Shown here: piece after piece, positions 5,719-64,000 of the stretch
Layout: every line of letters starts with the position of its first letter
How positions within the stretch are numbered: the first letter of the stretch is position 1
Origin: a virus
Reading direction: 5' to 3' (one strand)
IMG/VR virus record: IMGVR_UViG_3300045988_106231
Coordinates: 70,775-134,774 of that record
Length of the DNA stretch: 64,000 nt
Translations under genes and position numbers: made by a program
Notes under the pieces: generated by a model
Seen by the model: the letters and a program-made list of their open reading frames with translations, nothing else
Databases searched by the model: none
Told to the model about the DNA's origin: nothing

Positions 5719-6585
5719 ATGACTGCTCTGTATTGTTATGACAACGAAATAATAAAGTGGACTTACGGCGATAATCTGTATTGCTTGCATATCCAGCGCG
5801 ATAATGAAGCGGATAATAATCCTCGTTGGTGGGATGACCACGATTCTGTAATGGCCTGTTTCCATTCTCGATACAATCTGGGCGATAAGGTTGATGCAAA
5901 AACACCGGAAGAGTTTTGGAATAACCTGGTTTACAAATATTGTTATGATGATGAAGTTCTTGATGCGCTTTTTAATATGAAGCTGGAAGATACATGTGTC
6001 GTTGTTGATGAAAATTATAGCGACGAAAAAAGATATGCCATCTGCGGTATTGGAACTCTTTTTAATGAAAAGGTTTCGGTAAACCCGATGTATGTTGGTT
6101 TGAAGTATAACGAGATTGTTACATACGTTACTGGTGAGTTTTCGATTCGCGATTGTCAGATTCTTCTTGATAAGTATATTGCATGGCTTCCTCTTTGGCT
6201 GCATGACCATTCTGGCTTGTCCATGGATTGCGATACACAGTTCAGAGGTTCATGGGACGATAGTAATGTTGGCTGGATTGTGACCGCTATTACGGATGGT
6301 TCTGATAGTACCAAAAATGAAGCAGAACGAATCATGCGTGATGAGGTAAAGACTTATAGCGATTATCTTTCCGGTGAGAACTATGGCTATACGCTTTATC
6401 GAGAAGAACACGGAGAATGGAAGGAGATTGACAGAACATTCGGATTTATCGGTTCTGACGTGTTTGAAAACGGTATCACATACAGTGTAAGCTATGGTCT
6501 TGAAAAGGCATTGAGGGAAGATCGATGCCGTATTGGTGATGCAGAAAAGGTTGTCACTGTTACTTATGATTTTGATAAATGTTGA
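5719..6585 (+). CDS. hypothetical protein (288 aa)
   Basis: AAGGAG RBS; long ORF, no motif recognised. Confidence 0.65.
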   Translation: MTALYCYDNEIIKWTYGDNLYCLHIQRDNEADNNPRWWDDHDSVMACFHSRYNLGDKVDAKTPEEFWNNLVYKYCYDDEVLDALFNMKLEDTCVVVDENYSDEKRYAICGIGTLFNEKVSVNPMYVGLKYNEIVTYVTGEFSIRDCQILLDKYIAWLPLWLHDHSGLSMDCDTQFRGSWDDSNVGWIVTAITDGSDSTKNEAERIMRDEVKTYSDYLSGENYGYTLYREEHGEWKEIDRTFGFIGSDVFENGITYSVSYGLEKALREDRCRIGDAEKVVTVTYDFDKC

Positions 6586-6609
6586 GCTCTAAAATGGGGT
6601 TGAATAGAT

Positions 6610-6774
6610 ATGGCATATAAATATACCGAAGAAGAAGTTTGGAATGCGATTCATACACTTTCTGATATGAGAGCTGGATTTAACTGCTTTGACGAAAATG
6701 ATGTACAGAAGTATGAAGCGTGTTCAATGGGGATTGTTGCATTAAGAACGCTTGTGAACGCCGATAAAAGTTGA
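6610..6774 (+). CDS. hypothetical small protein (54 aa, not in ORF track)
   Basis: ATG..TGA ORF fills the gap between flanking genes. Confidence 0.35.
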   Translation: MAYKYTEEEVWNAIHTLSDMRAGFNCFDENDVQKYEACSMGIVALRTLVNADKS

Positions 6775-10372: not shown

Positions 10373-11677
10373 ATGACTACTAATAATCCTATGACTGTAA
10401 TAACCTCTAAGCCCTTCGGCGCATTGAGTATGGATGTATACGAGGACAACAATCATCAGTATTACATGACCCGTGAACAAATTGGTACGGCGCTTGAATA
10501 CAATAATCCTAATAAGGCAATTCAAAACATCCATGTTAAGAATACGGATCGTCTTGACCCTCTTTCAACATTCCTCAAACTGAGGAATGTTGAGGGCGGA
10601 ATTACGAAGGAACGTGAATATATCGTATACAGTTTGCGTGGTGTTATGGAAATCTGTCGTTTGTCTCGTCAGCCGAAGGCAGATGCGTTTATGGATTTCT
10701 GCTGGGACATTATGGAATCTTTGATGCGTGGTGATTCTGTTCTGGCTACTCCTCAGATGGATGCTGCACTGAGTAAGGAGTTCATTGATGTAAGACTTCA
10801 CGCCTTGTTTGATAGTGTAAAGAATCTTCAGAGCGAACTTGATTCCACTCGTAAGGATCTTAGTGAACAGATTGAGGAAGCTCGTGCTACTAGCAACGAA
10901 GCGCTGAATGTAATCAGCAGCGTATCTCAGTGTGTTCATCAGATTAAGGACAAGCAGATGGATAATGCGATTCGCGCTAAGAATTATACTCCTCGCAATG
11001 TTTTTCAGGACGAAATGAGTGAATGGCGTAAAGATTTGTATAGCAAGATTGGTGTGATTGCAAATACTAAAGGTTATACAAATAAGGAAACGATTCACAA
11101 AATCTATGAATATCTGAATCGTAATTATGGTTTCGTTTTGGAAGATGCTCGTGCAAAGTATATTAAGAGAACGAATCGTAGTGGGAAAATCTCTACGATT
11201 GATATTATCGAAGAGGACTCCACTTGGAAATCCATTATGGGTGCTGTTGTTGCAGATATGTACGCAGCATCTATTGAACGTCTGCACCAGAATCAGAATG
11301 AACTTCGTCCGGTTTTGAAAACTATTGAAGCAGCTCCTGAAGTAAATGTAAACGATGCTCCTATGGTTGAAGTTGAAGTTAAAGAAGTTGTGGAAGAAAA
11401 GCCCAAGAAGCAGAGTGAAACGGCAACTCGTCTGGTTCCGATTATTGAACCGCTGGCTCAAAAACTTGGTGATAAAACTGTTCATTATCATAAAACCTAT
11501 CGTATGGTTTACAACAAGATTGGATTCACTAAGATGGAAAACATGATGAAGCAGTATAAGCGTATTCATGGTCGTGTTCCGAGTCCCAAGACAAAAGTAT
11601 TCCTTGAGAATGACAAAGCTATGCGGATGTTTAAGAAAGCGGTTAAAGAGCTGATGAAAGAGCAGGAAAGTAAGTAA
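10373..11677 (+). CDS. phage antirepressor-like protein (Bro-N-type N-terminal domain)
   Basis: N-terminal ~110 aa pattern (FGALSMDVYEDNNHQYYMTREQIGTALEYNNPNKAIQNI...) resembles the Bro-N/antirepressor fold; long alpha-helical C-terminus; GGAGGGAG RBS. Confidence 0.45.
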   Translation: MTTNNPMTVITSKPFGALSMDVYEDNNHQYYMTREQIGTALEYNNPNKAIQNIHVKNTDRLDPLSTFLKLRNVEGGITKEREYIVYSLRGVMEICRLSRQPKADAFMDFCWDIMESLMRGDSVLATPQMDAALSKEFIDVRLHALFDSVKNLQSELDSTRKDLSEQIEEARATSNEALNVISSVSQCVHQIKDKQMDNAIRAKNYTPRNVFQDEMSEWRKDLYSKIGVIANTKGYTNKETIHKIYEYLNRNYGFVLEDARAKYIKRTNRSGKISTIDIIEEDSTWKSIMGAVVADMYAASIERLHQNQNELRPVLKTIEAAPEVNVNDAPMVEVEVKEVVEEKPKKQSETATRLVPIIEPLAQKLGDKTVHYHKTYRMVYNKIGFTKMENMMKQYKRIHGRVPSPKTKVFLENDKAMRMFKKAVKELMKEQESK

Positions 11678-12568: not shown

Positions 12569-12793
12569 ATGATGGTATATGGAAACATAACGTGTAATCG
12601 CTGTGGCATTACATGGTATGGCCCTAAATGTGGAAAGCTCTATTGTGATGAATGTCGTAAGATAATAAGAAATGAGGCATCCATTCGATGCAAGAATAAA
12701 AAGAAACATAAACCAACATTTGTTGAGATTGTAAGAATGGCAGATGCTGAAGGATTATCTTACGGTAAGTATTGCTTGAAGTATGGAATTTGA
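12569..12793 (+). CDS. zinc-ribbon small protein (CNRCG...CGKLYCDEC)
   Basis: Two CxxC pairs; GAGGTG RBS. Confidence 0.5.
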   Translation: MMVYGNITCNRCGITWYGPKCGKLYCDECRKIIRNEASIRCKNKKKHKPTFVEIVRMADAEGLSYGKYCLKYGI

Positions 12794-12800
12794 GGTGAAT

Positions 12801-13652
12801 ATGATGAGTGCGCTTGAAAACGAAAAGAAAATCGAAAATACTGTTGCTTTTGATTTTTCTGACTACGATTCTTCTAACAAAGAAAAAAGTCAGAAAGTAG
12901 TTAAAAAGAATTATAGCCTGACTCGTATGGAAGCAAATCATGGGTCGGTTCAGCCAATTAAAGACAAAGAGGATATCAAACGTATTTCAGAATATTTTTG
13001 GATTAAACGTCAGTACCGCAACTGGTGTTTGTTTAATGTAGGATGTTGCACAGGATTCAGAGCAAGTGATTTGCTTCGTTTGAAGGTTTCTGATGTAGCA
13101 GCTACAGATATGAATGGAAAGGTCGTAGTGAATTTTAACGCAAAACTTCGTGTTAAGGAAAAGAAAACAAATAAGTATCGCATTCTTAAAGTTCCGGTCC
13201 CGGCACTAAAGTGTATTCAAACTTATATCAATATTGATGGATTGTCTTATGACGATTGGCTCTTCCCGTCTCGGCAAGGCAGTTGGAAGAACTCCATGAG
13301 AACAAACGGTGGAACAAGTGTAAGTAAATCTGATGTGTTCCGTAAGTATGATGCAAATCCAAAAGAAATGGGCGACCCGCTTGATGTGGATTCTTTTGGC
13401 AGAATCATGCGTCAAGTTGGTAAGGAGTTAGATCTTCCTGTCCAGCTTGGTTCTCATAGCTGCCGCAAAACTTTCGGATATCAGTTTATTGCATCTCATC
13501 CAAATGACGTAAAAGCTCTTGCGTGGTTGCAGCATAGTCTGAATCACAGTAGTCAGGCAATTACGCTTCGCTATATTGGTCTGGATGAAGAAGTGGATGA
13601 TGAATACTACTCTGGGATTGATTATGGCGTGGACTGCCATGAAAACTCTTGA
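12801..13652 (+). CDS. tyrosine site-specific recombinase (small, phage-integrase family)
   Basis: Catalytic signature visible: TGFRASDLLRL (Arg I), HSCRKTFGY (HxxR), LQHSLNHSSQAITLRYI (His, Arg, Tyr); start 12783/12801/12804 ambiguous. Confidence 0.75.
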   Translation: MMSALENEKKIENTVAFDFSDYDSSNKEKSQKVVKKNYSLTRMEANHGSVQPIKDKEDIKRISEYFWIKRQYRNWCLFNVGCCTGFRASDLLRLKVSDVAATDMNGKVVVNFNAKLRVKEKKTNKYRILKVPVPALKCIQTYINIDGLSYDDWLFPSRQGSWKNSMRTNGGTSVSKSDVFRKYDANPKEMGDPLDVDSFGRIMRQVGKELDLPVQLGSHSCRKTFGYQFIASHPNDVKALAWLQHSLNHSSQAITLRYIGLDEEVDDEYYSGIDYGVDCHENS

Positions 13653-17245: not shown

Positions 17246-17494
17246 ATGGACAAAGTGAAATATTCTGATTACAATATAGAAGACTTGAAGCAGAGAAGGA
17301 AATCTTACGGAAGCGGCATTGAAATTTGCAGAAGTGGAGATGGAATTGACACTTCAATCGGTAGCAAAGTATGTTTTCCTGGACGAACATTGTCGCCGGA
17401 TGAGGCGATTGCTTTTGCGGAGAATCTGATTAAGGCCGCGAATGAGGCAAAAGAGTTTAAGTACAACGGATATTTCATCAATTGGCTTGAGTAA
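17246..17494 (+). CDS. hypothetical protein
   Basis: TAAGGAGGAGGG RBS. Confidence 0.6.
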   Translation: MDKVKYSDYNIEDLKQRRKSYGSGIEICRSGDGIDTSIGSKVCFPGRTLSPDEAIAFAENLIKAANEAKEFKYNGYFINWLE

Positions 17495-17519
17495 AACTAA
17501 TCTTTTAGGAGGATTTAAT

Positions 17520-18296
17520 ATGCCAAGGAAAAAGACGGTAGAAGCTAAACAATTGGCACCGAAAGAAATAGCTCGTAAGTCACCTACGTTTGCAGAGATT
17601 CCTGAGATGGCAAGTCGTGCTGGTGAGCCTACATACTATTATAATGTAGGAGATGCTGTAGTGATTGGCCGTCTTAGTGGTTGCAAGATTGATGAAGTCT
17701 GCGACGGTGGTTTATATTACGGTGTTTCTTATGATAATGGATACAGGTACGAAACGTGGTTCAATATTCGTAGAGCAGGAGTCGAGAAGGAGTCTCAGCT
17801 GACTAAGAATGATGACATTAAGATTTCCTACTCAAATGTGACCATCGAATCCTTGCTCCACAGGTATTACTTCTTTGGCATCAACTGCAATCCGAGTTAT
17901 CAACGCGGATCTGTGTGGACGGATGATGACCGTGAATTGCTTCTTGAGACAATTTTTATGGGTGGTGAAATCGGTCGATTTGTTCTGAAAAACATTGACA
18001 TGGACGAATGGCATGAAAATCAGAACTACCTTTATGAAATCATTGACGGTAAGCAGAGACTTCTGACACTTGCTGCGTTCTACGAAGATCGGTTCCGTTA
18101 TAAAGGATATCTGTACAGTGAACTCTCTAAGAAAGATAAGAGAACCTTTGATGAGACTGCAATTGCTATCGCGGATTTGCGGAATCTTTCTAAGAAAGAT
18201 ACGTTGCGTGTGTTCTTGCTTCTGAATCGCGGCGGCAAGGTCGTTTCCAATGCTGTGCTTGACCATGCAAAAGAGCTTCTGAACGAAATGGAGTGA
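17520..18296 (+). CDS. DUF262 / DGQHR (ParB-like nuclease superfamily) domain protein
   Basis: IIDGKQRLLTL matches the (I/V)DGQQR(L/I)T signature of the DUF262/GmrSD-N domain; TAGGAGG RBS before ATG 17520. Confidence 0.55.
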   Translation: MPRKKTVEAKQLAPKEIARKSPTFAEIPEMASRAGEPTYYYNVGDAVVIGRLSGCKIDEVCDGGLYYGVSYDNGYRYETWFNIRRAGVEKESQLTKNDDIKISYSNVTIESLLHRYYFFGINCNPSYQRGSVWTDDDRELLLETIFMGGEIGRFVLKNIDMDEWHENQNYLYEIIDGKQRLLTLAAFYEDRFRYKGYLYSELSKKDKRTFDETAIAIADLRNLSKKDTLRVFLLLNRGGKVVSNAVLDHAKELLNEME

Positions 18297-18830: not shown

Positions 18831-19457
18831 GTGATTCTTATTAACCCTAATTTGTTAATAAATCGTGAGCAAAGTATTGCTATTATATGTATAATGTGCC
18901 TGCTGGCAGGGAATCTGGTATCGAAGATCAGCCCGGTGATTCAGAATCAGAGCAATTCGTACCTTTATAATAGTAGTCCTCCGGCAGTGAGTACTGTGCA
19001 GCAAGAGGAAAAGGAGCCAGAAGTCATTGTAGAGACTGTTGTTGAGACGAAAGTGGTGAACTTTAGCCAGGGGAAATGCGAACTCACCGATGACGAGCGT
19101 GCTCTTGCAGAGCAGATCGTTGCTTGTGAAGCAGGTGCTGATAGCTTAGAAGGTCAGATGGCTGTGGCTCAATGTCTTTATGATTCTGCTGTGATTGATG
19201 GGATTACAATACAGGAAGTCTTTAAGAAGTATGGGTATAGTACCTTATATAATAGGAATGTGACGGCAGAGAACGAGCTGGCCGTATCTATGGTGTTTGA
19301 CTACGGCGCTAAGATTTCGGACAAACCTATTCAATGGTTTGTAACCCCGGCGGCAGCTCCCGGCAGTTGGCACGAGCGAGGAGCAACATTTGCTGGACAA
19401 TTTGGCGCACACAGGTTTTATTATGACGCGAAGCTGGTTGTGGATGATGCTGAGTAA
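18831..19457 (+). CDS. SleB/CwlJ-like cell-wall hydrolase with N-terminal membrane anchor
   Basis: ALAEQIVACEAGADSLEGQMAVAQCLYDS matches the Hydrolase_2 (SleB) consensus ...A.E..GE...GQ.AVA.V..NR; hydrophobic N-terminal segment; GTG start. Confidence 0.6.
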   Translation: MILINPNLLINREQSIAIICIMCLLAGNLVSKISPVIQNQSNSYLYNSSPPAVSTVQQEEKEPEVIVETVVETKVVNFSQGKCELTDDERALAEQIVACEAGADSLEGQMAVAQCLYDSAVIDGITIQEVFKKYGYSTLYNRNVTAENELAVSMVFDYGAKISDKPIQWFVTPAAAPGSWHERGATFAGQFGAHRFYYDAKLVVDDAE

Positions 19458-19510
19458 ATGGCATCATCTAAAATTTCGATAAATAATACAACAAAAAGAT
19501 GTGTAATATA

Positions 19511-19538
19511 TTGACGAAAACAAAAAGATGTGTATAAT
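19511..19538 (+). promoter_or_regulatory. sigma70-type promoter TTGACG-N16-TGnTATAAT
   Basis: TTGACG 19511-19516, extended -10 TGTATAAT 19531-19538; overlapped by two 21-bp direct repeats (19491-19511, 19520-19542). Confidence 0.6.
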
Positions 19539-19580
19539 ATATCTTGAAAGTTGTTTATGTGAGCGGAAGGCGGTATTTCA

Positions 19581-19907
19581 ATGAGTGAGAAAAAGGTTTT
19601 GGAAATTATACAGGTTGAAAACTTTTTGAAGTACATAAGAAAAAAGCGAGTGTGGGTCTGCTTTATTTGTAATGGTGTGGATGTTCACATGATCTGCAAG
19701 AAGATGAACGATATTGGTGTAGAGACACATGGGATTGTCAAAGGCATTGGATTTTTTGGAAACGAAAGTCATGTTGAGCTGCGGCAAGAATGCTACGAAG
19801 TAAGGAGGGTTGAGTTTAGGCCGGGCGATAAAGAGAAAGCGTATGAGATGATCTTCGATAACACCAGCGTGTTCGTATCAGAGAATCCAGAGTTGTACGG
19901 GCACTAA
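19581..19907 (+). CDS. hypothetical protein (Cys/His-containing; candidate partner of downstream toxin)
   Basis: 108 aa ORF immediately downstream of promoter 19511-19538. Confidence 0.55.
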   Translation: MSEKKVLEIIQVENFLKYIRKKRVWVCFICNGVDVHMICKKMNDIGVETHGIVKGIGFFGNESHVELRQECYEVRRVEFRPGDKEKAYEMIFDNTSVFVSENPELYGH

Positions 19908-19926
19908 AAATATTTTCGAAAACCTA

Positions 19927-19955
19927 TTGACTTCTGTAAAGGTATCCTGTATAAT
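19927..19955 (+). promoter_or_regulatory. consensus sigma70 promoter TTGACT-N17-TATAAT embedded in a 21-bp conserved motif (reverse orientation)
   Basis: TTGACT 19927-19932, TATAAT 19950-19955, 17-nt spacer. Confidence 0.7.
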
Positions 19956-19998
19956 ATAGCTATGGAACGGAGCTACACTATTATAGAGGAGAAAGACT

Positions 19999-20418
19999 AT
20001 GGACAACAATATTGACCCAAAGGTCGGAGAGGTTTGGTTGGTTGATCTATCCAATGCGACAGGTCATCAGCAGCGCGGTATTCGACCGTTCGTTGTGACG
20101 AGTAACAATAAGCGCAACTTCTTCAGTCCCACAATCAAAGGGAATCCGTTGTCTTCCAGAACATACAAGCGTTCTCCGGTTCATGTCCTGCTCTCAAAGG
20201 AAGATTGCGATTTCCTAGAGGTTGACAGTATCGTTCTCTGTGAAGAGACTGACACACTTAACAAAGGGCAGTTTATCAAAAAGCTTGGTGTCTTGTCTGA
20301 GCGTCATATGAATATGATCGCAATGGCCAGATGCAAGGATGAACCGTTTTTGATCTCGGCGTTCGTGAGCGGCGTACAACATACTATGGAATTTCAGAAT
20401 TTTGCCGCATTTGCTTGA
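19999..20418 (+). CDS. MazF/PemK-family endoribonuclease toxin
   Basis: N-terminus GEVWLVDLSNATGHQQRGIRPFVVTSNN matches the MazF/PemK signature (GE/DIW.VDL.P..G.EQ.G.RP.LVVS); 139 aa; AGGAGAAAG RBS. Confidence 0.75.
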   Translation: MDNNIDPKVGEVWLVDLSNATGHQQRGIRPFVVTSNNKRNFFSPTIKGNPLSSRTYKRSPVHVLLSKEDCDFLEVDSIVLCEETDTLNKGQFIKKLGVLSERHMNMIAMARCKDEPFLISAFVSGVQHTMEFQNFAAFA

Positions 20419-20471
20419 TTTTTTATAAGGGTTAATGGTACACTACATATAATAAGAAGGAGTGTGCCATT

Positions 20472-21398
20472 ATGCTTACTGAAGAAAAGATCAACGCTTT
20501 TGCTGAAAAGTATTCTGATAGAAGCGGCGAGTTTGTTATATCGACACTTAACCATGTTATGGACTACGAAGCGGAGTGCGGGTATGAGCTATTCGACTTC
20601 ACAAAAGATGATTTTGTAAAGATGTTTGCCAAATACAATTGGGTAAACTCAAGTCGTTCATTCAGAAATGTGAAATCGATAATCACTGGTTATATCAAGA
20701 ACGAAAATCGTACAAGCATGTATGATTTGGCTGAATTCTCAGAGAGCGATGTGAGTTCAGACAATATGTACGAGGACAAGTATTTTGCATCGGTTGATGA
20801 GTTTGTTGGTTTCTTAAACAAGTATGAAGAAGCGTATCAGATTCGTATGAATGTGATTGCTGTTTTGTACTGGATCGGTCTTACTTCTAGTGAGGTTTCT
20901 AATCTAACAATTAACGATGTAGACTTTGAATCTCGTACTGTCCTCGATAGGACTGATGTTGACGCAAGGTTGATGGATATCATCAAGCAGTGTTATGAAA
21001 TGAAACAGTATGATGCGCCCAATATGGGAGGATACAGAACATTTTATGTCATAAATGGTGATTACATTCTTCGTAAAACAGAGGATAGAACTGGTGTAGA
21101 CAGCGACCCGAAGATGTCTGTAAATACAATCCATAGTTATTTTGTGAGGCTGAATGACATTCTCGAAAAAAGACATCATACAAAGATTTTAGATCGAAGA
21201 CATCTGACCAGAAATGGTGAGTATGTGAAGGTCTACGATTACTGTAAGAGTAATTCAGAGTTCAACCTTGCGGAGCTTAGTTTCGGAAATGGTAAAAAAC
21301 CTCTTGCAGACATTATTGGAAGAAAGTGTAGCAAGGTAGCTTACATTAGTTTCCGGCAGGGATACAAGGGCTGGGTCGAATACTTCCACAAAAATTAA
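20472..21398 (+). CDS. hypothetical protein, possibly degenerate tyrosine-recombinase-like
   Basis: Segment AVLYWIGLTSSEVSNLTINDVDFESRTV resembles the integrase Arg-I region but with Thr in place of Arg; no clear HxxR/Y motifs. Confidence 0.4.
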   Translation: MLTEEKINAFAEKYSDRSGEFVISTLNHVMDYEAECGYELFDFTKDDFVKMFAKYNWVNSSRSFRNVKSIITGYIKNENRTSMYDLAEFSESDVSSDNMYEDKYFASVDEFVGFLNKYEEAYQIRMNVIAVLYWIGLTSSEVSNLTINDVDFESRTVLDRTDVDARLMDIIKQCYEMKQYDAPNMGGYRTFYVINGDYILRKTEDRTGVDSDPKMSVNTIHSYFVRLNDILEKRHHTKILDRRHLTRNGEYVKVYDYCKSNSEFNLAELSFGNGKKPLADIIGRKCSKVAYISFRQGYKGWVEYFHKN

Positions 21399-21403
21399 AA
21401 ACA

Positions 21404-21426
21404 GGGGGCTTCGGCCCCTTGATTTT
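21404..21426 (+). terminator. rho-independent terminator
   Basis: GGGGGC-TTCG-GCCCC hairpin followed by TTGATTTT. Confidence 0.7.
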
Positions 21427-21532
21427 AACATCATAACTATATGACACAGGATACTAAACTAAAATAGACATTTTATGAAGAATTGGAAATGAATAAATAA
21501 CGATAATGCGTTAGATAAAAGGAGCAAAAACA

Positions 21533-23605
21533 ATGTCTGATTTCAAGAAATTTCGCGCACTGCTGCAGGACCACTTCAATGAGATGGTGAAGGTCGAGAA
21601 TCCACTGTTTATCACCGATGCAGACGAGGATGAACTGTATAATCTGTATCTCGACAGCTTCCCGGTCGGCACGAATGAATTGTTTCGTAAGCGGCGCGAG
21701 TATGACTGTTCCTGCTGCCGCCGTTTTGTGAAGAATATCGGCAAGCTGGTAGCGTTTGATGCGGGTCGTAATCTGGTTTCTATTTGGGATTTTGATGCTA
21801 AGTCTGCCAAGTATCAGCCTGTTGTGGACGCTCTGGCTACTTACGTGAAGAGTCGCGCCATTGTGAATCCGTACTTTATCAGCCGCAATATGATCGGTTC
21901 TGGCAATATGTTCGGCACCGAGATGAACTACGAGTACGATGAAAACAACAAGGATGTGCATACTTGGGATCATTTCGCAGTCAAGATTCCGCAGCATTTT
22001 ATTACCAGTGGAGATGATGTGGCTACCAAGATGGCTCAGTGGCGTGATTCCGCAAATGTATACAAGCGTTCTCTGGAAGAGCTAACCATGGAGGCCGTTG
22101 ATACTGTGCTGGAGCTGATTGCACAGAATAGTCTGTATCGCGGTAAGGAATTTGAAAACGCCGTCAAGGTATTCAAGACTAACAAGATTGAATACAATAA
22201 TACTCCGGCTGAGAACAAGGCCGCTTATGTTTGGCTGGCCCCGGCGTGGAGCGATATGGGACAGCTTCGTATCCGTAACACCGCTATCGGTACTTTGCTG
22301 GTAAATCTGAGTGAGGGTATGAACGTGGATGCAGCCGTTACTGCCTTCGAGAAAGTTGTTGCTCCCGCAAACTATAAGCGTCCAAAAGCAATTTTCACTA
22401 AGAAGATGCTGGAGGATGCACAGAAAACCGTCACTGAGCTGGGTTATATGAATAGTCTGGGTCGTCGGTTTGCTACTCTGGACGATATCACCGCAAACAA
22501 TATCCTGTTCTGCAACCGTGATGCCGCTCCTCGTATTGCTGGTGCTACAAATCCGTTTGAGGCAATGGCTAAGACTGTTACGATTGATCCCAAGAAGTTT
22601 GGCCGTGCAGAGGAAATTGGTATTGACAAGTTTATCAAAGACGTGTTGCCGACTGCGACCGGCCTAGAACTGTTCATGGAGAATCGTTTCGAGAAGAATA
22701 TGATGTCCCTGATTGCTCCGCAGGATAAGGCTGCGCCAAGCATGTTCAAGTGGCCCAATGGTTTCAGTTGGGCGTATACAGGCAACACGACTGACAGCCA
22801 GATCCGTGAGAACGTCAAGAATGCTGGCGGCAAAGTCGATGGCGTGCTGCGTTTCTCTATCCAGTGGAACGATAAGCAGTGCGAGTGGGATGAAAATGAC
22901 CTTGATGCCCACTGTGTTGAACCGAACGACTTTGAGATCTATTTTGGCAACAAACGAGATTGGAGTACTGGTGGCGATCTGGATGTAGATATTATTCATC
23001 CTGATCGTGATGAGGCCGCTGTTGAGAATATTACATGGCCTGATATCAAAAAGATGAAGGATGGCAAATACGAGTTCTTTGTTCATTGCTTCTCTAACCG
23101 TGGCGGCAAAACTGGTTTCCGCGCAGAGATTGAATTTGATGGTCAAATTTACTCCTTCAATTATAATATTCCGCTGCGTCAGACTCAGAATGTTTCTGTT
23201 GCTACTGTTGTGTTGAAGGATGGGCAGTTTACTATTAAGGAACATCTCAATAGTTCTACTTCTTCCCGTGAAATCTGGGGTGTGAATTCCAATCAGTTTG
23301 TGCCGGTGTCCGTAGCTATGTATTCTCCGAACTACTGGGATGAGCAGACTGGTAATGGCAACCGTCACTACTTTTTCATGCTCAAGGATTGTGTCAACCC
23401 TGAAAAACCCAACGGATTCTATAATGAATTCCTGAAGGTGGAGTTACTGCAGCACAAGAGAGTGTTCGAGGCTCTTGGCTCTCAGATGGCGGTTCAATCG
23501 GTGGATGACCAGCTGTCTGGTGTTGGCTTCTCTGAGACGAAGCACGACCTCTTCATTGTCAAGGTTCAGGGAGCTACTGAGCGAGTTCTGAAAGTTGTTA
23601 TTTGA
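21533..23605 (+). CDS. large hypothetical protein (690 aa)
   Basis: Long ORF with AAAAGGAG RBS; CSCC cluster near N-terminus; no family recognised by eye. Confidence 0.7.
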   Translation: MSDFKKFRALLQDHFNEMVKVENPLFITDADEDELYNLYLDSFPVGTNELFRKRREYDCSCCRRFVKNIGKLVAFDAGRNLVSIWDFDAKSAKYQPVVDALATYVKSRAIVNPYFISRNMIGSGNMFGTEMNYEYDENNKDVHTWDHFAVKIPQHFITSGDDVATKMAQWRDSANVYKRSLEELTMEAVDTVLELIAQNSLYRGKEFENAVKVFKTNKIEYNNTPAENKAAYVWLAPAWSDMGQLRIRNTAIGTLLVNLSEGMNVDAAVTAFEKVVAPANYKRPKAIFTKKMLEDAQKTVTELGYMNSLGRRFATLDDITANNILFCNRDAAPRIAGATNPFEAMAKTVTIDPKKFGRAEEIGIDKFIKDVLPTATGLELFMENRFEKNMMSLIAPQDKAAPSMFKWPNGFSWAYTGNTTDSQIRENVKNAGGKVDGVLRFSIQWNDKQCEWDENDLDAHCVEPNDFEIYFGNKRDWSTGGDLDVDIIHPDRDEAAVENITWPDIKKMKDGKYEFFVHCFSNRGGKTGFRAEIEFDGQIYSFNYNIPLRQTQNVSVATVVLKDGQFTIKEHLNSSTSSREIWGVNSNQFVPVSVAMYSPNYWDEQTGNGNRHYFFMLKDCVNPEKPNGFYNEFLKVELLQHKRVFEALGSQMAVQSVDDQLSGVGFSETKHDLFIVKVQGATERVLKVVI

Positions 23606-23621
23606 AAAGGAGAGAATGAAT

Positions 23622-24005
23622 ATGGAAAAGAATCTATTTGAAATCGCAACTCGTAACCGTTATCGTTTTACCTACAAGGGTGTCATGACCGTGGAAGACC
23701 TGTGGGATCTGAGCGTCGAGGCGTTGGATGCAATTTTTAAGACTTTGAACCGTCAAAAGAAGACTGCCGACGAAGATTCTCTGCTGACCACTAAGAGCGC
23801 CGCCGATACTGAGTTGGCTAATAAAATCGAGCTGGTCAAATATATTGTGTCTATTAAGTTGGCTGAGGCCGATGAGCGAGTGAATGCCGCCGAGAAGAAG
23901 GCACAGCGCGATAAGATTCTGGCTATCATGGCTAAGAAACAGGATGCCGCCCTTGAGGGTATGGATATGAAGCAGTTGGAAGCAGAGCTTGCAAAACTGT
24001 CCTAA
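23622..24005 (+). CDS. hypothetical alpha-helical protein
   Basis: ATG 23622 is 7 nt after AAAGGAGAG. Confidence 0.55.
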   Translation: MEKNLFEIATRNRYRFTYKGVMTVEDLWDLSVEALDAIFKTLNRQKKTADEDSLLTTKSAADTELANKIELVKYIVSIKLAEADERVNAAEKKAQRDKILAIMAKKQDAALEGMDMKQLEAELAKLS

Positions 24006-24071
24006 CTAAGATATTTTCTTCCTCCGAAAATGCCCTGCGCGGGGCTGACAGCCGGGAAAGACCGGCGATAT

Positions 24072-24156
24072 GGGGATATGGTGAAATTGGCAGCCACGCT
24101 TGATTCAAACTCAAGTGTCAAAAGACGTGTCGGTTCAAATCCGACTATCCCTACCA
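24072..24156 (+). tRNA. tRNA-Leu(CAA), type II, CCA encoded
   Basis: Manual fold: acceptor GGGGATA/TATCCCT, anticodon arm CTTGA-TTCAAAC-TCAAG, long variable arm, T-arm GTCGG-TTCAAAT-CCGAC. Confidence 0.7.
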
Positions 24157-24353
24157 TGAAAATCAGTTGTTTCAGCTAGATCGGGGATTGGCCGTTCATT
24201 GGCAAACGACAGGTATCATACCGGTAAAGGATACCGAGCCAAATAGGAAGGGAAATAAGGTGCAAGCCGAGTAGCTGTCGGACGAATACTCTTCAGGTAG
24301 CCAGTAAACTGGAACGTAAAACGAATGTTGGCTGTTTCTGATTTTCTTTACAA

Positions 24354-24437
24354 GCCACTGTGGTGAAATTGGCAGACACGAGGGACTTAAAATCCCTTTC
24401 TGGCAACAGAGTACGGGTCCAAATCCCGTCGGTGGCA
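24354..24437 (+). tRNA. tRNA-Leu(TAA), type II, no CCA
   Basis: Acceptor GCCACTG/CGGTGGC, anticodon arm AGGGA-CTTAAAA-TCCCT, long variable arm, T-loop TTCAAAT. Confidence 0.7.
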
Positions 24438-24444
24438 TTTATAT

Positions 24445-24520
24445 CCGGGTGTAGCTCAGTTGGAAGAGCGCGTGTTTTGGGAACATGAGGCCGCAGGATC
24501 ATGACCTGTCACTCGGACCA
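24445..24520 (+). tRNA. tRNA-Pro(TGG), CCA encoded
   Basis: Acceptor CCGGGTG/CACTCGG, D-arm GCTC..GAGC, anticodon arm CGTGT-TTTGGGA-ACATG; T-loop ATCATGA is non-canonical (A54, U58). Confidence 0.55.
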
Positions 24521-24525
24521 TATAA

Positions 24526-24599
24526 TGCGTCGTAGCCAAGCGGTTAAGGCAGGGTCCTTTGAAGTCCCGATTGCGAGAGTTCGATTCTCTCCGGCGCAA
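24526..24599 (+). tRNA. tRNA-Gln(TTG), no CCA
   Basis: U1:A72 first pair as in bacterial tRNA-Gln; anticodon loop CTTTGAA; T-arm GAGAG-TTCGATT-CTCTC. Confidence 0.6.
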
Positions 24600-24604
24600 T
24601 TTAT

Positions 24605-24690
24605 GCGGGTATGGTGAAATTGGCGAGACACGAATGCTTTAGGGACATTTGCCGAAAGGTATACCAGTTCGAATCTGGTTACCCGCACCA
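24605..24690 (+). tRNA. tRNA-Leu(TAG), type II, CCA encoded
   Basis: Acceptor GCGGGTA/TACCCGC; anticodon arm AATGC-TTTAGGG-ACATT with a C31·A39 mismatch; long variable arm; T-loop TTCGAAT. Confidence 0.55.
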
Positions 24691-24793
24691 CGGTCATAGA
24701 ATGGTTGCGTACCGTTTATTGATCTCCTTTGACCACTATTATTCCCAGCTTACTCGTAAGAGTGCAGTAGTACTTTGTAAGTTGGGTTCTTAT

Positions 24794-24869
24794 GCGACTG
24801 TAGTTCAATTGGCAGAGCGTCAGATTTCCAATCTGAATGTTGCGGGATCATACCCCGTCAGTCGCTCCA
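24794..24869 (+). tRNA. tRNA-Gly(TCC), CCA encoded
   Basis: Acceptor GCGACTG/CAGTCGC, anticodon arm TCAGA-TTTCCAA-TCTGA, discriminator U; T-loop ATCATAC is non-canonical. Confidence 0.6.
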
Positions 24870-25000
24870 CGCGCAGCCCCTTACGCTGCACCGGTTACTC
24901 AGAGCCGAAAGGAACCTATATGTTACGACATGGTTGCCAAGAGTGATCATATTGGAACGCGACGTAGCTTGGATAGTAAGAATTAAATTCTGAGGTATAC

Positions 25001-25067
25001 GGCTGGATAGCTTAATGGTAAAAGCGCTCGGAAACACCGAGAGATAAGGTTCGATTCCTTCACTGGC
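25001..25067 (+). ncRNA. degenerate tRNA-like element (pseudo-tRNA?)
   Basis: Canonical D-arm (GCT-TAATGGTAAA-AGC) and T-arm (AAGG-TTCGATT-CCTT), but no pairable acceptor stem and an aberrant anticodon hairpin CTCGG-AAACA-CCGAG. Confidence 0.35.
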
Positions 25068-25096
25068 ATCGCGCCGATGAAAGTCGGCGTTTGCAT

Positions 25097-25188
25097 GGGA
25101 CGTTAGCTTAGTTGGTTAAAGCTCCTGGCTCATAACCGGGTGATGAGGATAACACCTCACAGGGGTTCGAGTCCCTTACGTCCCACCA
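25097..25188 (+). tRNA. atypical tRNA, anticodon CAT, 20-nt variable arm (92 nt, CCA encoded)
   Basis: Acceptor GGGACGT/ACGTCCC, D-arm GCTT-AGTTGGTTA-AAGC, anticodon arm CCTGG-CTCATAA-CCGGG, variable arm with TGAGG/CCTCA stem, T-arm AGGGG-TTCGAGT-CCCTT. Confidence 0.55.
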
Positions 25189-25385
25189 GCCCGATAGGGC
25201 ATACATAAAATCTGCTAGAACTTTTGTTTTATAAGCGAATGAATAATATGACGTTAATACGTCTATTATTTTTCGCTCATTTTTAAAGTTTTAGCTATAT
25301 TACACAGGATACTAAAGGGGGAGTTGTAATCTTACGAGTTTTAATTGCCTGTGAGGAATCACAGGAAGTTTGTAAAGCATTTCGA

Positions 25386-28549: not shown

Positions 28550-28594
28550 TTTTTAGTCTTAGCTAAGTAATACAGGATACAGAGAGGGCTAGTT

Positions 28595-42465: not shown

Positions 42466-42490
42466 CAATTATATAAGCATCCTGTATAAT
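42462..42490 (+). promoter_or_regulatory. consensus sigma70 promoter TTGACA-N17-TATAAT
   Basis: TTGACA 42462-42467, TATAAT 42485-42490; -10 lies inside a copy of the 21-bp motif. Confidence 0.7.
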
Positions 42491-42557
42491 ATAGCTATAA
42501 AAAGTCTCCATCTCGGAGGCTTAAAAATCTCTCTTTAGCTATATAATACAGGATACG

Positions 42558-42596
42558 AGAAAGAAATGGCTTGCTCGTAATGGCAAGCCTTTCTTT
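42558..42596 (+). other. long imperfect hairpin (terminator/attenuator-like) in the ligase leader
   Basis: GAAAGAAATGGCTTGC-TCGTAAT-GGCAAGCCTTTCTTT, 15-bp stem with one bulge, followed by a T-rich tract. Confidence 0.55.
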
Positions 42597-42638
42597 ATTG
42601 GTTGTAACTACACAACACAGGATGCATGAGGAGGCTTT

Positions 42639-62833: not shown

Positions 62834-64000
62834 ATGATAAGACGTAAAGATAATAATGGCAAAGTTTTAAAAGACGGCGAGAGCCAGAGAAAGGATGGGA
62901 GATACCAATATAGATGGACAAACAAACTTGGAAAACGCTCAATAATATACGCCACTTCACTTAAAGAATTGAGAGAAAAAGAAGCTGAAATCCAAGAAAA
63001 ACTTAATTTTGGTGTAACGTCTATTTCAAAAATCACAGTGTACCAATTAGCAAAAAGACATCTCGAAGAAACAAAACTCACTATTAGGCCAAGCAGCTAT
63101 AAAACAAAATCGCAGAATTTGAAAATCTTTCAGAATCACCTAATTGGGGAAATGAATGCAACTGATATTTTAGTGCGCGATGTAAAACAATTTGCACGAG
63201 AATTGGATAACGAAGGATATTGTTATACAACAATCAGAGATGTCATGTCTTTAGCTAGACCGGCATTTCAAGAAATGTTTGATGAGAATATAATTCCTAG
63301 AAATCCATTCGTTTTTAAATTAAATACAGTTGTCAAATGTGACTCAAAAGAAAAAGAAATATTAACAGAAGAGCAGTATCAAAATCTGATCAAGTTCATG
63401 AAATCTAGTCGAGTATATAAAAGGCATGTTGGCATGGTGATGCTTTTGCACGAGACAGGACTTCGAGCAGGAGAATTATGCGGGCTAACAAAAAAGTCAT
63501 TTGATTTTGATAACAACACTGTTACTATATCTCATCAGATGGTGTACGATGGAAAGAGCGGCGGGCTGTATTTAGCACCTACAAAAACAGAAAGTGGGAT
63601 AAGGACTATCCCATTGTCTAAAGACGCCATCATTGCTTTTGAAGAAGCGATAAAACAACGACCGATTGTAAAAGCAGAGAGAATAATAGATGGGCAAGCC
63701 GACTTCTTGTTTATAGCAAAAACTGGAAGGCCCTATACGAATAAAAACCTTGTTAGAATTTTTGAAGGACTAATCAAAGCCTATAATAGTTGCCATGATG
63801 AACCATTGCCTGAAGTCACTGCCCATAGTATGCGCCACGAATATTGTACACGGCTTGTCAAAGCCAAGATGGATGTTAAATCGGTTCAATACCTCATGGG
63901 ACATTCGTCGCCCGATATAACCTTAAAAGTGTATACTCATATCTTAAAAGAAGAGACCGAAGCAGAGGCAATCAAACAGTTTAATAGGATTGTTTCCTAA
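62834..64000 (+). CDS. int: tyrosine integrase, Tn916 Int family
   Basis: N-terminus RRKDNNGKVLKDGESQRKDGRYQYRW parallels Int-Tn916 (RRDNRGRILKTGESQRKDGRYLYKY); catalytic AHSMRHEYCTRL and LMGHSSPDITLKVYTHI (H-R-Y); AAGGAG RBS. Confidence 0.85.
   Translation: MIRRKDNNGKVLKDGESQRKDGRYQYRWTNKLGKRSIIYATSLKELREKEAEIQEKLNFGVTSISKITVYQLAKRHLEETKLTIRPSSYKTKSQNLKIFQNHLIGEMNATDILVRDVKQFARELDNEGYCYTTIRDVMSLARPAFQEMFDENIIPRNPFVFKLNTVVKCDSKEKEILTEEQYQNLIKFMKSSRVYKRHVGMVMLLHETGLRAGELCGLTKKSFDFDNNTVTISHQMVYDGKSGGLYLAPTKTESGIRTIPLSKDAIIAFEEAIKQRPIVKAERIIDGQADFLFIAKTGRPYTNKNLVRIFEGLIKAYNSCHDEPLPEVTAHSMRHEYCTRLVKAKMDVKSVQYLMGHSSPDITLKVYTHILKEETEAEAIKQFNRIVS

Follow-up and report, generated by a model that had tools for sequence, protein, structure and literature searches.

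The locus described here lies at positions 19,458 to 21,532 of a 64,000-nt stretch of viral DNA (positions 70,775 to 134,774 of IMG/VR record IMGVR_UViG_3300045988_106231; this whole stretch is referred to below as the window) and encodes a MazF-like toxin followed by a protein resembling the integrase-fold repressors of SPbeta-like phages. An earlier description made from the letters and open reading frames (ORFs) alone, here called the sequence-only reading, had seen a self-contained toxin island of three genes, and all three ORFs were found where it had put them. The features of the locus, numbered from the first letter of the window, are as follows (aa, amino acids; PWM, score against the position weight matrix of the motif described below):

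19490-19511 and 19519-19540, plus strand: direct repeats of 22 nt each, 29 nt apart, 91% identical
19511-19538, plus strand: P1, sigma-A-type promoter-like site TTGACG-N16-TATAAT, 11/12 to consensus, 5′ of the 108-aa ORF
19581-19907, plus strand: 108-aa ORF, a hypervariable slot 5′ of mazF
19927-19955, plus strand: P2, sigma-A-type promoter TTGACT-N17-TATAAT, 11/12 to consensus, ahead of mazF and the repressor gene
19941-19964, plus strand: O1, operator-like GGTATCCTGTATAATATAGCTATG, lying over the −10 of P2 and the predicted start of transcription; PWM 34.4
19999-20418, plus strand: mazF, 139-aa protein of the PemK/MazF endoribonuclease family
20472-21398, plus strand: 308-aa MrpR/YopR/SroF-like integrase-fold protein, presumed master repressor
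21403-21427, plus strand: intrinsic terminator closing the mazF–repressor unit (hairpin 21403-21419 and T-run)
21432-21455, minus strand: O2, operator-like, inverted copy of O1, directly 3′ of the terminator; PWM 32.9

Both promoters that the sequence-only reading had drawn are present, with some loss of detail: P2, which it had called perfect, is near-perfect, and the TGn register it had given to P1 did not hold, as the TG abuts the hexamer (at P2 as well) and the promoter scan reports no TG element. P1 and P2 are conserved in related loci, the −35 and −10 of P2 being invariant in 28 unique sequences from 82 loci, and both fall between genes, in gaps that are scarce in this window (95% coding, plus strand); promoter-like sites as a class show no overall enrichment over this 10 kb (30 against 22.5 ± 4.7 expected). 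The terminator is as strong as had been claimed (−17.5 kcal/mol, z = −5.45, none of 200 shuffles equally good) and is conserved in relatives. Terminator scanning and folding found no terminator-like site between the 108-aa ORF and mazF, so that read-through from the former into the latter is possible. No significant RNA structure was predicted by folding in the mazF leader or around P2, and Rfam returned no RNA family in 19300-21700. Values of dN/dS (0.12 for the 108-aa ORF, 0.05 for mazF and 0.08 for the 308-aa gene) place all three genes under purifying selection.

The 139-aa product is, judged from its sequence, a genuine MazF/PemK protein that has kept its catalytic residues, as first proposed. 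It matches Pfam PemK_toxin (PF02452) at 69.1 bits (cutoff 23.1) and phrog_1936 at 1.3e-21, and among solved structures it is closest to S. aureus MazF and B. subtilis EndoA (PDB chains, 4e-13). R29, equivalent to the catalytic R25 of the B. subtilis enzyme, is invariant in 26 homologues, and position 52 (B. subtilis T48), a Ser in the window lineage, is occupied by Ser or Thr in 26/26 aligned homologues; in B. subtilis MazF, the T48A substitution abolishes RNase activity (PMC10769878). Throughout this MazF subfamily, about 20-25 aa at the C-terminal end form a conserved extension (AR..DEPFL..AF...F). No relative emerged when a single genome of each species was scanned with the MazF alignment, and counts of UACAU, ACA and related motifs, compared between cassette and window, gave no informative bias.

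The 308-aa protein, which the sequence-only reading had called degenerate recombinase-like and left unclassified, could be placed: its identification as a member of the MrpR/YopR/SroF family of integrase-fold repressors is well supported. Pfam MrpR_N_CB is matched in 21/21 close family members (best E-value 4.4e-6) and, above threshold, in two divergent syntenic homologues (from loci L011, 35.9 bits, and L014, 34.2 bits); matches to MrpR_C_cat are all weak (22.1 bits in L011, with further precomputed matches rated ‘weak’). BLAST forms a chain from the window protein to its L011 homologue (28% identity, 2e-26) and from there to SPbeta YopR (1.4e-6), and Foldseek, a check suggested in advance, ranked the phi3T structures SroF-DNA (9rd5) and SroF-Sar (9rgl) first (E 7e-4), above Cre and MrpR (8a0a). 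In place of the catalytic Arg I stands Thr138 (GLTSSEV, against GLRISEL of Tn1549 Int in the alignment), which is ≥90% conserved in the close family; the divergent lineages, whose sequences were read by eye, likewise have a residue other than Arg there. Pfam Phage_integrase (PF00589) finds no match in the protein, which does match the PHROG integrase family phrog_5830; by contrast, gp8 of Thomasclavelia phage TR-TP2 scores 123 bits against Phage_integrase and the window’s own integrases match integrase PHROGs. A profile of the 308-aa family returned weak Tn1549 Int matches alone among PDB sequences, and tblastn found no match for the protein in deposited phage genomes. Its relatives MrpR and SroF are described as the master repressor of SPbeta-like phages, with an integrase fold and no remaining recombinase function, binding a long motif that recurs through the prophage (PMC10516654; bioRxiv 10.1101/2025.11.27.690993), and by analogy the 308-aa protein would likewise bind DNA.

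Such a repeated motif is present. An asymmetric 24-nt sequence (GTATCCTGTrTwATATAGCTA), missed by the sequence-only reading, brackets the mazF–repressor pair and occurs in seven copies in the window, in both orientations, where a pattern search expects 0.74 matches. Against its PWM these copies score 28-35, the rest of the window ≤12 and the best of 20 shuffles 17.3, and 7/7 are intergenic. The flanking copies form a 23-nt inverted repeat (19942-19964 and 21432-21454, 20/23 complementary), and the sequence beyond O2 differs between relatives. The five further copies are these:

25290-25313, minus strand: operator-like copy just 5′ of the ribosome-binding site of a DNA methyltransferase gene; PWM 35.3
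28558-28581, minus strand: operator-like copy in the gap that separates a YorF-like gene from the one following it in the replication module; PWM 31.5
42476-42499, plus strand, 42534-42557, minus strand, and 42603-42626, minus strand: operator-like cluster 5′ of an ATP-dependent DNA ligase gene; PWM 35.0, 34.9 and 28.3

The copy at 42476 overlaps the −10 of a TTGACA-N17-TATAAT promoter. This consensus promoter, in the 173-nt gap that holds the cluster ahead of the ligase gene (42466-42638), has a −10 region that repeats the one at the mazF promoter, and no other promoter of the window is probably under such heavy control. At P2, the GTATCC of the motif is invariant in a spacer that otherwise varies freely (the same 28 unique sequences), which is how an operator behaves, and we regard this assignment as well supported. 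As a monomer, SroF is reported to recognise a 26-bp box found at scattered genomic sites (bioRxiv 10.1101/2025.11.27.690993), and in length, asymmetry, use in either orientation and dispersal the motif matches, by analogy, the description of that box. The idea that minus-orientation copies might be minus-strand promoters was rejected: no usable −35/−10 was seen by eye and there are no genes on that strand.

The two direct repeats that the sequence-only reading had noticed in the first intergenic region are real and overlap the −35 and −10 of P1. Their AACAAAAnGnTGT core is kept in both copies among relatives as the remainder, notably of the first repeat, drifts. They share an 11-nt core, TGTGTAATATA, with one operator copy and lack its GTATCC and GCTA ends; they may be bound by the repressor or by another factor. 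No LexA-type GAAC-N4-GTTC box was found at the repeats (19490-19540).

To place the locus among its relatives, we compared 87 close loci (seven from assemblies and 80 on IMG/VR contigs, mostly of 125-140 kb) and nine divergent lineages, namely that of the window and eight further ones found through MazF. All 87 close loci have the same gene order and the same two flanking motif copies in the same place, and the order small ORF, mazF, repressor-like gene is held in all nine lineages. MazF shows 59-79% identity between lineages, the repressor-like protein 19-32% (always detectably homologous), and the upstream small ORF (102-127 aa) falls into at least four groups unconnected by BLAST. The window’s motif was not found in the divergent lineages; 7/9 lineages have a 17-18/20 repeat of their own that links the mazF promoter region with the region after the repressor gene (shuffle maximum 15-16). 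The cis element thus changes with the fast-evolving repressor rather than with the conserved toxin. Across every lineage examined, mazF shares promoter and terminator with the repressor gene. These comparisons divide the earlier picture of a self-contained toxin island: the unit does have its own promoters and terminator, but it is a conserved repressor region and no foreign island, being held in 87 close loci and eight further lineages, and its GC content (37-46% across the region, like its neighbours) gives no island signal by composition. Searching deposited phage genomes with the DNA of the region gave no match.

Among the close relatives L016-L094, the three genes assort independently, which points to frequent recombination at gene boundaries: in L017, MazF and the small ORF are 100% identical to those of the window and the repressor 89%, and in L020 the repressor is 100% identical and the small ORF 79%. 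Two lineages (L098, 3112-3333; L099, 3043-3306) carry a divergently transcribed HTH_3 (Xre-type) gene just 5′ of the small ORF–mazF–repressor unit, which recalls SPbeta yopS beside yopR.

Taken together, we consider it somewhat better than an even chance that 19.9-21.46 kb is the repressor (immunity) operon of an SPbeta-like phage, a self-repressed mazF–repressor unit in which MazF aids lysogeny. Gene identities, anatomy, motif statistics and comparative conservation are as observed above; the activity of MazF, its pro-lysogeny role and the mode of its neutralisation we infer by analogy. MrpR binds a repeated element, SPBRE, at sites that include one upstream of yopM, the head of its own operon yopMNOPQR (PMC10516654); and in phi3T/SPbeta the RNase activity of host MazF is needed for efficient lysogeny, with the sro operon product phi3T_93 releasing MazF from MazE (PMC10769878).

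On this model, P2 would transcribe a bicistron of mazF and then the MrpR/SroF-type repressor gene, ended by the terminator. The repressor would bind a site of about 24 bp, asymmetric as for SroF, and its binding at O1, over the −10 and start of P2, would give negative autoregulation. O2, the inverted copy after the terminator, would lie at the head of the next unit, and binding at the five further copies, ahead of methyltransferase, replication and ligase genes, would silence lytic or early functions. Whenever P2 fired, MazF made along with the repressor would damp translation while the repressor accumulates, transiently, during the setting up of lysogeny, until repressor at O1 stopped further MazF synthesis. 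With such a shut-off, the phage may do without a MazE of its own; a second candidate inhibitor would be the 108-aa protein made from P1.

The following observations weigh against the model. The window’s 308-aa protein itself scores 21.9 bits against MrpR_N_CB, under the cutoff of 27. Although Foldseek ranks SroF first, the TM-scores are low (about 0.27) and the AF2 model is good for residues 1-177 only, with pLDDT <50 in the C-terminal half. An hhalign comparison of the family with YopR was not significant, nor was that with YopP, the alignment being too shallow (Neff 1.4). In five of its seven copies the motif is transcribed in the same orientation (..ACAGGAUAC), just 5′ of ribosome-binding sites, so a role at the RNA level is possible. 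No arbitrium genes were seen near the cassette, in a look that covered the cassette neighbourhood and not the rest of the ~130-kb genome. Finally, orphan mazF genes are common in phages that have no SroF-like neighbour.

A further step, which we offer tentatively and hold to be distinctly less probable, is that the phage has internalised the MazF arm of an SPbeta-type switch, with the repressor as antidote, through shut-off of the shared promoter or direct binding, so that MazE is needless. If so, loss of the repressor (by induction, curing or an antirepressor) would unleash the RNase and couple prophage state to host RNA cleavage, independently of arbitrium.

The antitoxin question bears on this step and on the alternatives. 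The sequence-only reading had found no recognisable MazE/PemI-type antitoxin, and wider searches agree: MazE, AbrB and RHH families gave no match among the 87 small plus-strand ORFs of the window, and neither a MazE/AimX/YosL-like helix nor a ‘GYMEM..IN’ helix was found, the YosL query matching nothing in the window. The 108-aa ORF upstream is not a canonical MazE; its product is modelled with a PH-like/YojF-like beta fold and matched no antitoxin family in Pfam, PHROG, PADLOC or further searches, and its profile matched no SPbeta ORF, YopN and YopM included. It is a candidate MazF inhibitor or repressor modulator. The proteins encoded on either side of mazF both change far more rapidly than MazF, so that neither resembles a classical co-evolving antitoxin, though either may still act as one.

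The sequence-only reading had offered a non-canonical toxin–antitoxin pair, abortive infection and an anti-host RNase as functions of the locus; these we treat as rivals, and a role in the lysis–lysogeny decision fits the comparative evidence better. The first to consider, which we judge unlikely, is a toxin-first, non-canonical type II toxin–antitoxin system in which the 308-aa or the 108-aa protein binds MazF, serving mainly prophage addiction or abortive infection and superinfection exclusion, and not the phage’s own choice between lysis and lysogeny. HigBA and MqsRA have the toxin gene first, a DNA-binding autoregulator downstream and an operator over the promoter, and here a toxin with intact catalytic residues and no MazE is followed by a putative autoregulatory DNA-binding partner with an operator-like site over the promoter, in tight synteny across nine lineages and with a promoter and terminator of its own that make expression in lysogens possible. 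Against such a pair, the repressor (19-32%) and the small ORF (at least four groups) diverge far faster than MazF (59-79%), which is unusual for a binding antitoxin; the operator-like sites are spread over replication and modification genes, as fits a global phage repressor; and none of the three proteins has a PADLOC match.

We think it improbable that MazF is instead a lytic-cycle weapon, directed at host shut-off or at competitors, with RNA-repair and tRNA genes protecting the phage and the neighbouring repressor gene incidental. PHROGs does place phage MazF under host takeover, the window does hold seven tRNA genes, and a Pnkp–RNA ligase fusion or an RNA ligase often lies directly after O2 in relatives; but an RNA-repair gene is absent from the window and from several lineages, and mazF and the repressor gene share an operator-bearing promoter and a terminator in every lineage examined. 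Lastly, the notion that the 23-nt inverted repeats are recombination sites, at which the 308-aa protein acts as a tyrosine recombinase to invert or mobilise the cassette, is effectively excluded, even though the repeats flank both genes exactly and the protein has an integrase-like fold and a phrog_5830 match: Arg I is Thr138, PF00589 does not match, the motif has five copies elsewhere, in some lineages the flanking copies point the same way, and the cassette has one orientation in 87/87 close loci.

The wider window shows kinship with SPbeta. Downstream lies a replication module (YorF-like, AAA_24/Sak4-like, DnaB, primase, RecJ-like exonuclease and Pol III alpha) in the order of SPbeta yorF-yorL; identity is 35% between the RecJ-like protein and YorK and 24% between the polymerase and YorL (5e-65). 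An anaerobic NrdD is encoded in the window, the samples are mostly gut-type metagenomes by their names, and homologues occur on contigs of up to 784 kb, which indicates prophages. The element is thus a temperate SPbeta-like phage of about 125-140 kb, of an anaerobe.

Upstream, no AimR-sized gene directly precedes the unit (the neighbours are 284, 111, 63 and 208 aa, with no AimR-like Pfam or PHROG match). The 284-aa neighbour (17442-18296) matches GmrSD_N/DUF262 at 57.5 bits and the PADLOC NsnA model at 1e-17, and is possibly a nuclease or a defence-related phage gene. Canonical tyrosine integrases are encoded at 12569-13652, with a Tn916-type excisionase 5′ and a DUF6291 protein 3′, and at 62834-64000; a protein with an Ant-like anti-repressor domain lies at 10373-11677.

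Between O2 and the next operator copy (21456-25290) is a variable cargo slot. The window has there a gene for a 690-aa phrog_1735 protein and seven tRNA genes at 24072-25188 (Leu-CAA, Leu-TAA, Pro-TGG, Gln-TTG, Leu-TAG, Gly-TCC and Met-CAT); given this cluster, the small ORFs listed at 24030-24943 are probably not genes. Many relatives carry in this slot a fusion of AAA_33 kinase, Metallophos phosphatase and T4-type RNA ligase (~740 aa) or a 221-aa RNA ligase, and others Band_7 or LemA genes (slot coordinates: L001-L006, 7062-9272; L007, 7005-7670; L012, 6591-8855; L100, 5933-8161); in L014, a tRNA-Met directly follows the cassette (6585-6660). Cleavage by MazF leaves 2′,3′-cyclic phosphate and 5′-OH ends, which makes RNA-repair enzymes directly after a MazF operon suggestive.

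According to the literature, MrpR/SroF-type master repressors have so far been characterised in Bacillus SPbeta-like phages only, and we found no published pairing of a phage-encoded MazF with such a repressor, orphan phage mazF being already known. Here a repressor of this type and MazF share an operon in a very common phage group; a single repressor variant is already indexed in 753 assembly-collection blocks. Should MazF belong to the switch, its involvement would be ancestral or recurrent in SPbeta-type switches rather than a Bacillus peculiarity, and the locus would offer a compact two-gene system for studying the role of an RNase toxin in establishing lysogeny. The nine natural variants of repressor and operator specificity would also be a resource on how monomeric integrase-fold repressors read DNA.

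Set beside known systems, the locus shares with HigBA and MqsRA a toxin that comes first, a DNA-binding regulator (binding here being putative) downstream and an operator over the promoter; it differs in that the partner is a 308-aa integrase-fold protein with putative sites across the genome. Like chromosomal MazEF (B. subtilis EndoA/EndoAI, S. aureus), it encodes a PemK/MazF family protein with the catalytic Arg and Thr/Ser and about 35-38% core identity, but no MazE/AbrB-type antitoxin was found upstream, where there is a PH-like ORF separated by a promoter, and the toxin has a C-terminal extension of ~20-25 aa and a phage repressor-like gene downstream.

Orphan phage MazF (PHROG 1936, ‘MazF-like growth inhibitor’) is likewise solitary, without a recognisable antitoxin, in temperate phages of Bacillota, and 77 phage records hold relatives at <60% identity. 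The subfamily described here has its own C-terminal extension and a fixed synteny, whereas no MrpR-like gene follows in the orphan cases examined (Perkons, PMBT24, NatCom_13861). As candidates for MrpR-like proteins, Perkons ORF41 and the ORF downstream in NatCom_13861 were rejected; in the cultured TR-TP2 (PQ571310.1, 101 kb; L096, 3471-4791), mazF is followed by a gene for gp8, a canonical Phage_integrase protein. As Perkons, NatCom_13861 and TR-TP2 lack it, the pairing of mazF with MrpR is, among the cases examined, specific to this phage group.

The closest comparison is with the SPbeta/phi3T operon sroA-F (yopMNOPQR), from which the locus differs in having two genes rather than six, in encoding MazF itself where phi3T encodes a MazE-binding factor that acts on host MazEF, in the lack of an aimR-aimP-aimX seen beside the operon, and in its host, an anaerobe (NrdD, gut-type metagenomes) and not Bacillus; in sequence the motif bears no relation to the phi3T box, and identity to YopR is detectable via intermediates alone. 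The likenesses are those of architecture. Both have a protein of integrase fold, as predicted here, without catalytic residues (here the loss of Arg I is placed, the other positions not reliably so), a long asymmetric motif at distant intergenic sites that include the head of its own operon, a position upstream of a yorF-yorL-type replication module that runs in the same direction, within a genome of about 130 kb, and a tie to MazF, which is made here by gene content (PMC10516654, PMC10769878, bioRxiv 10.1101/2025.11.27.690993).

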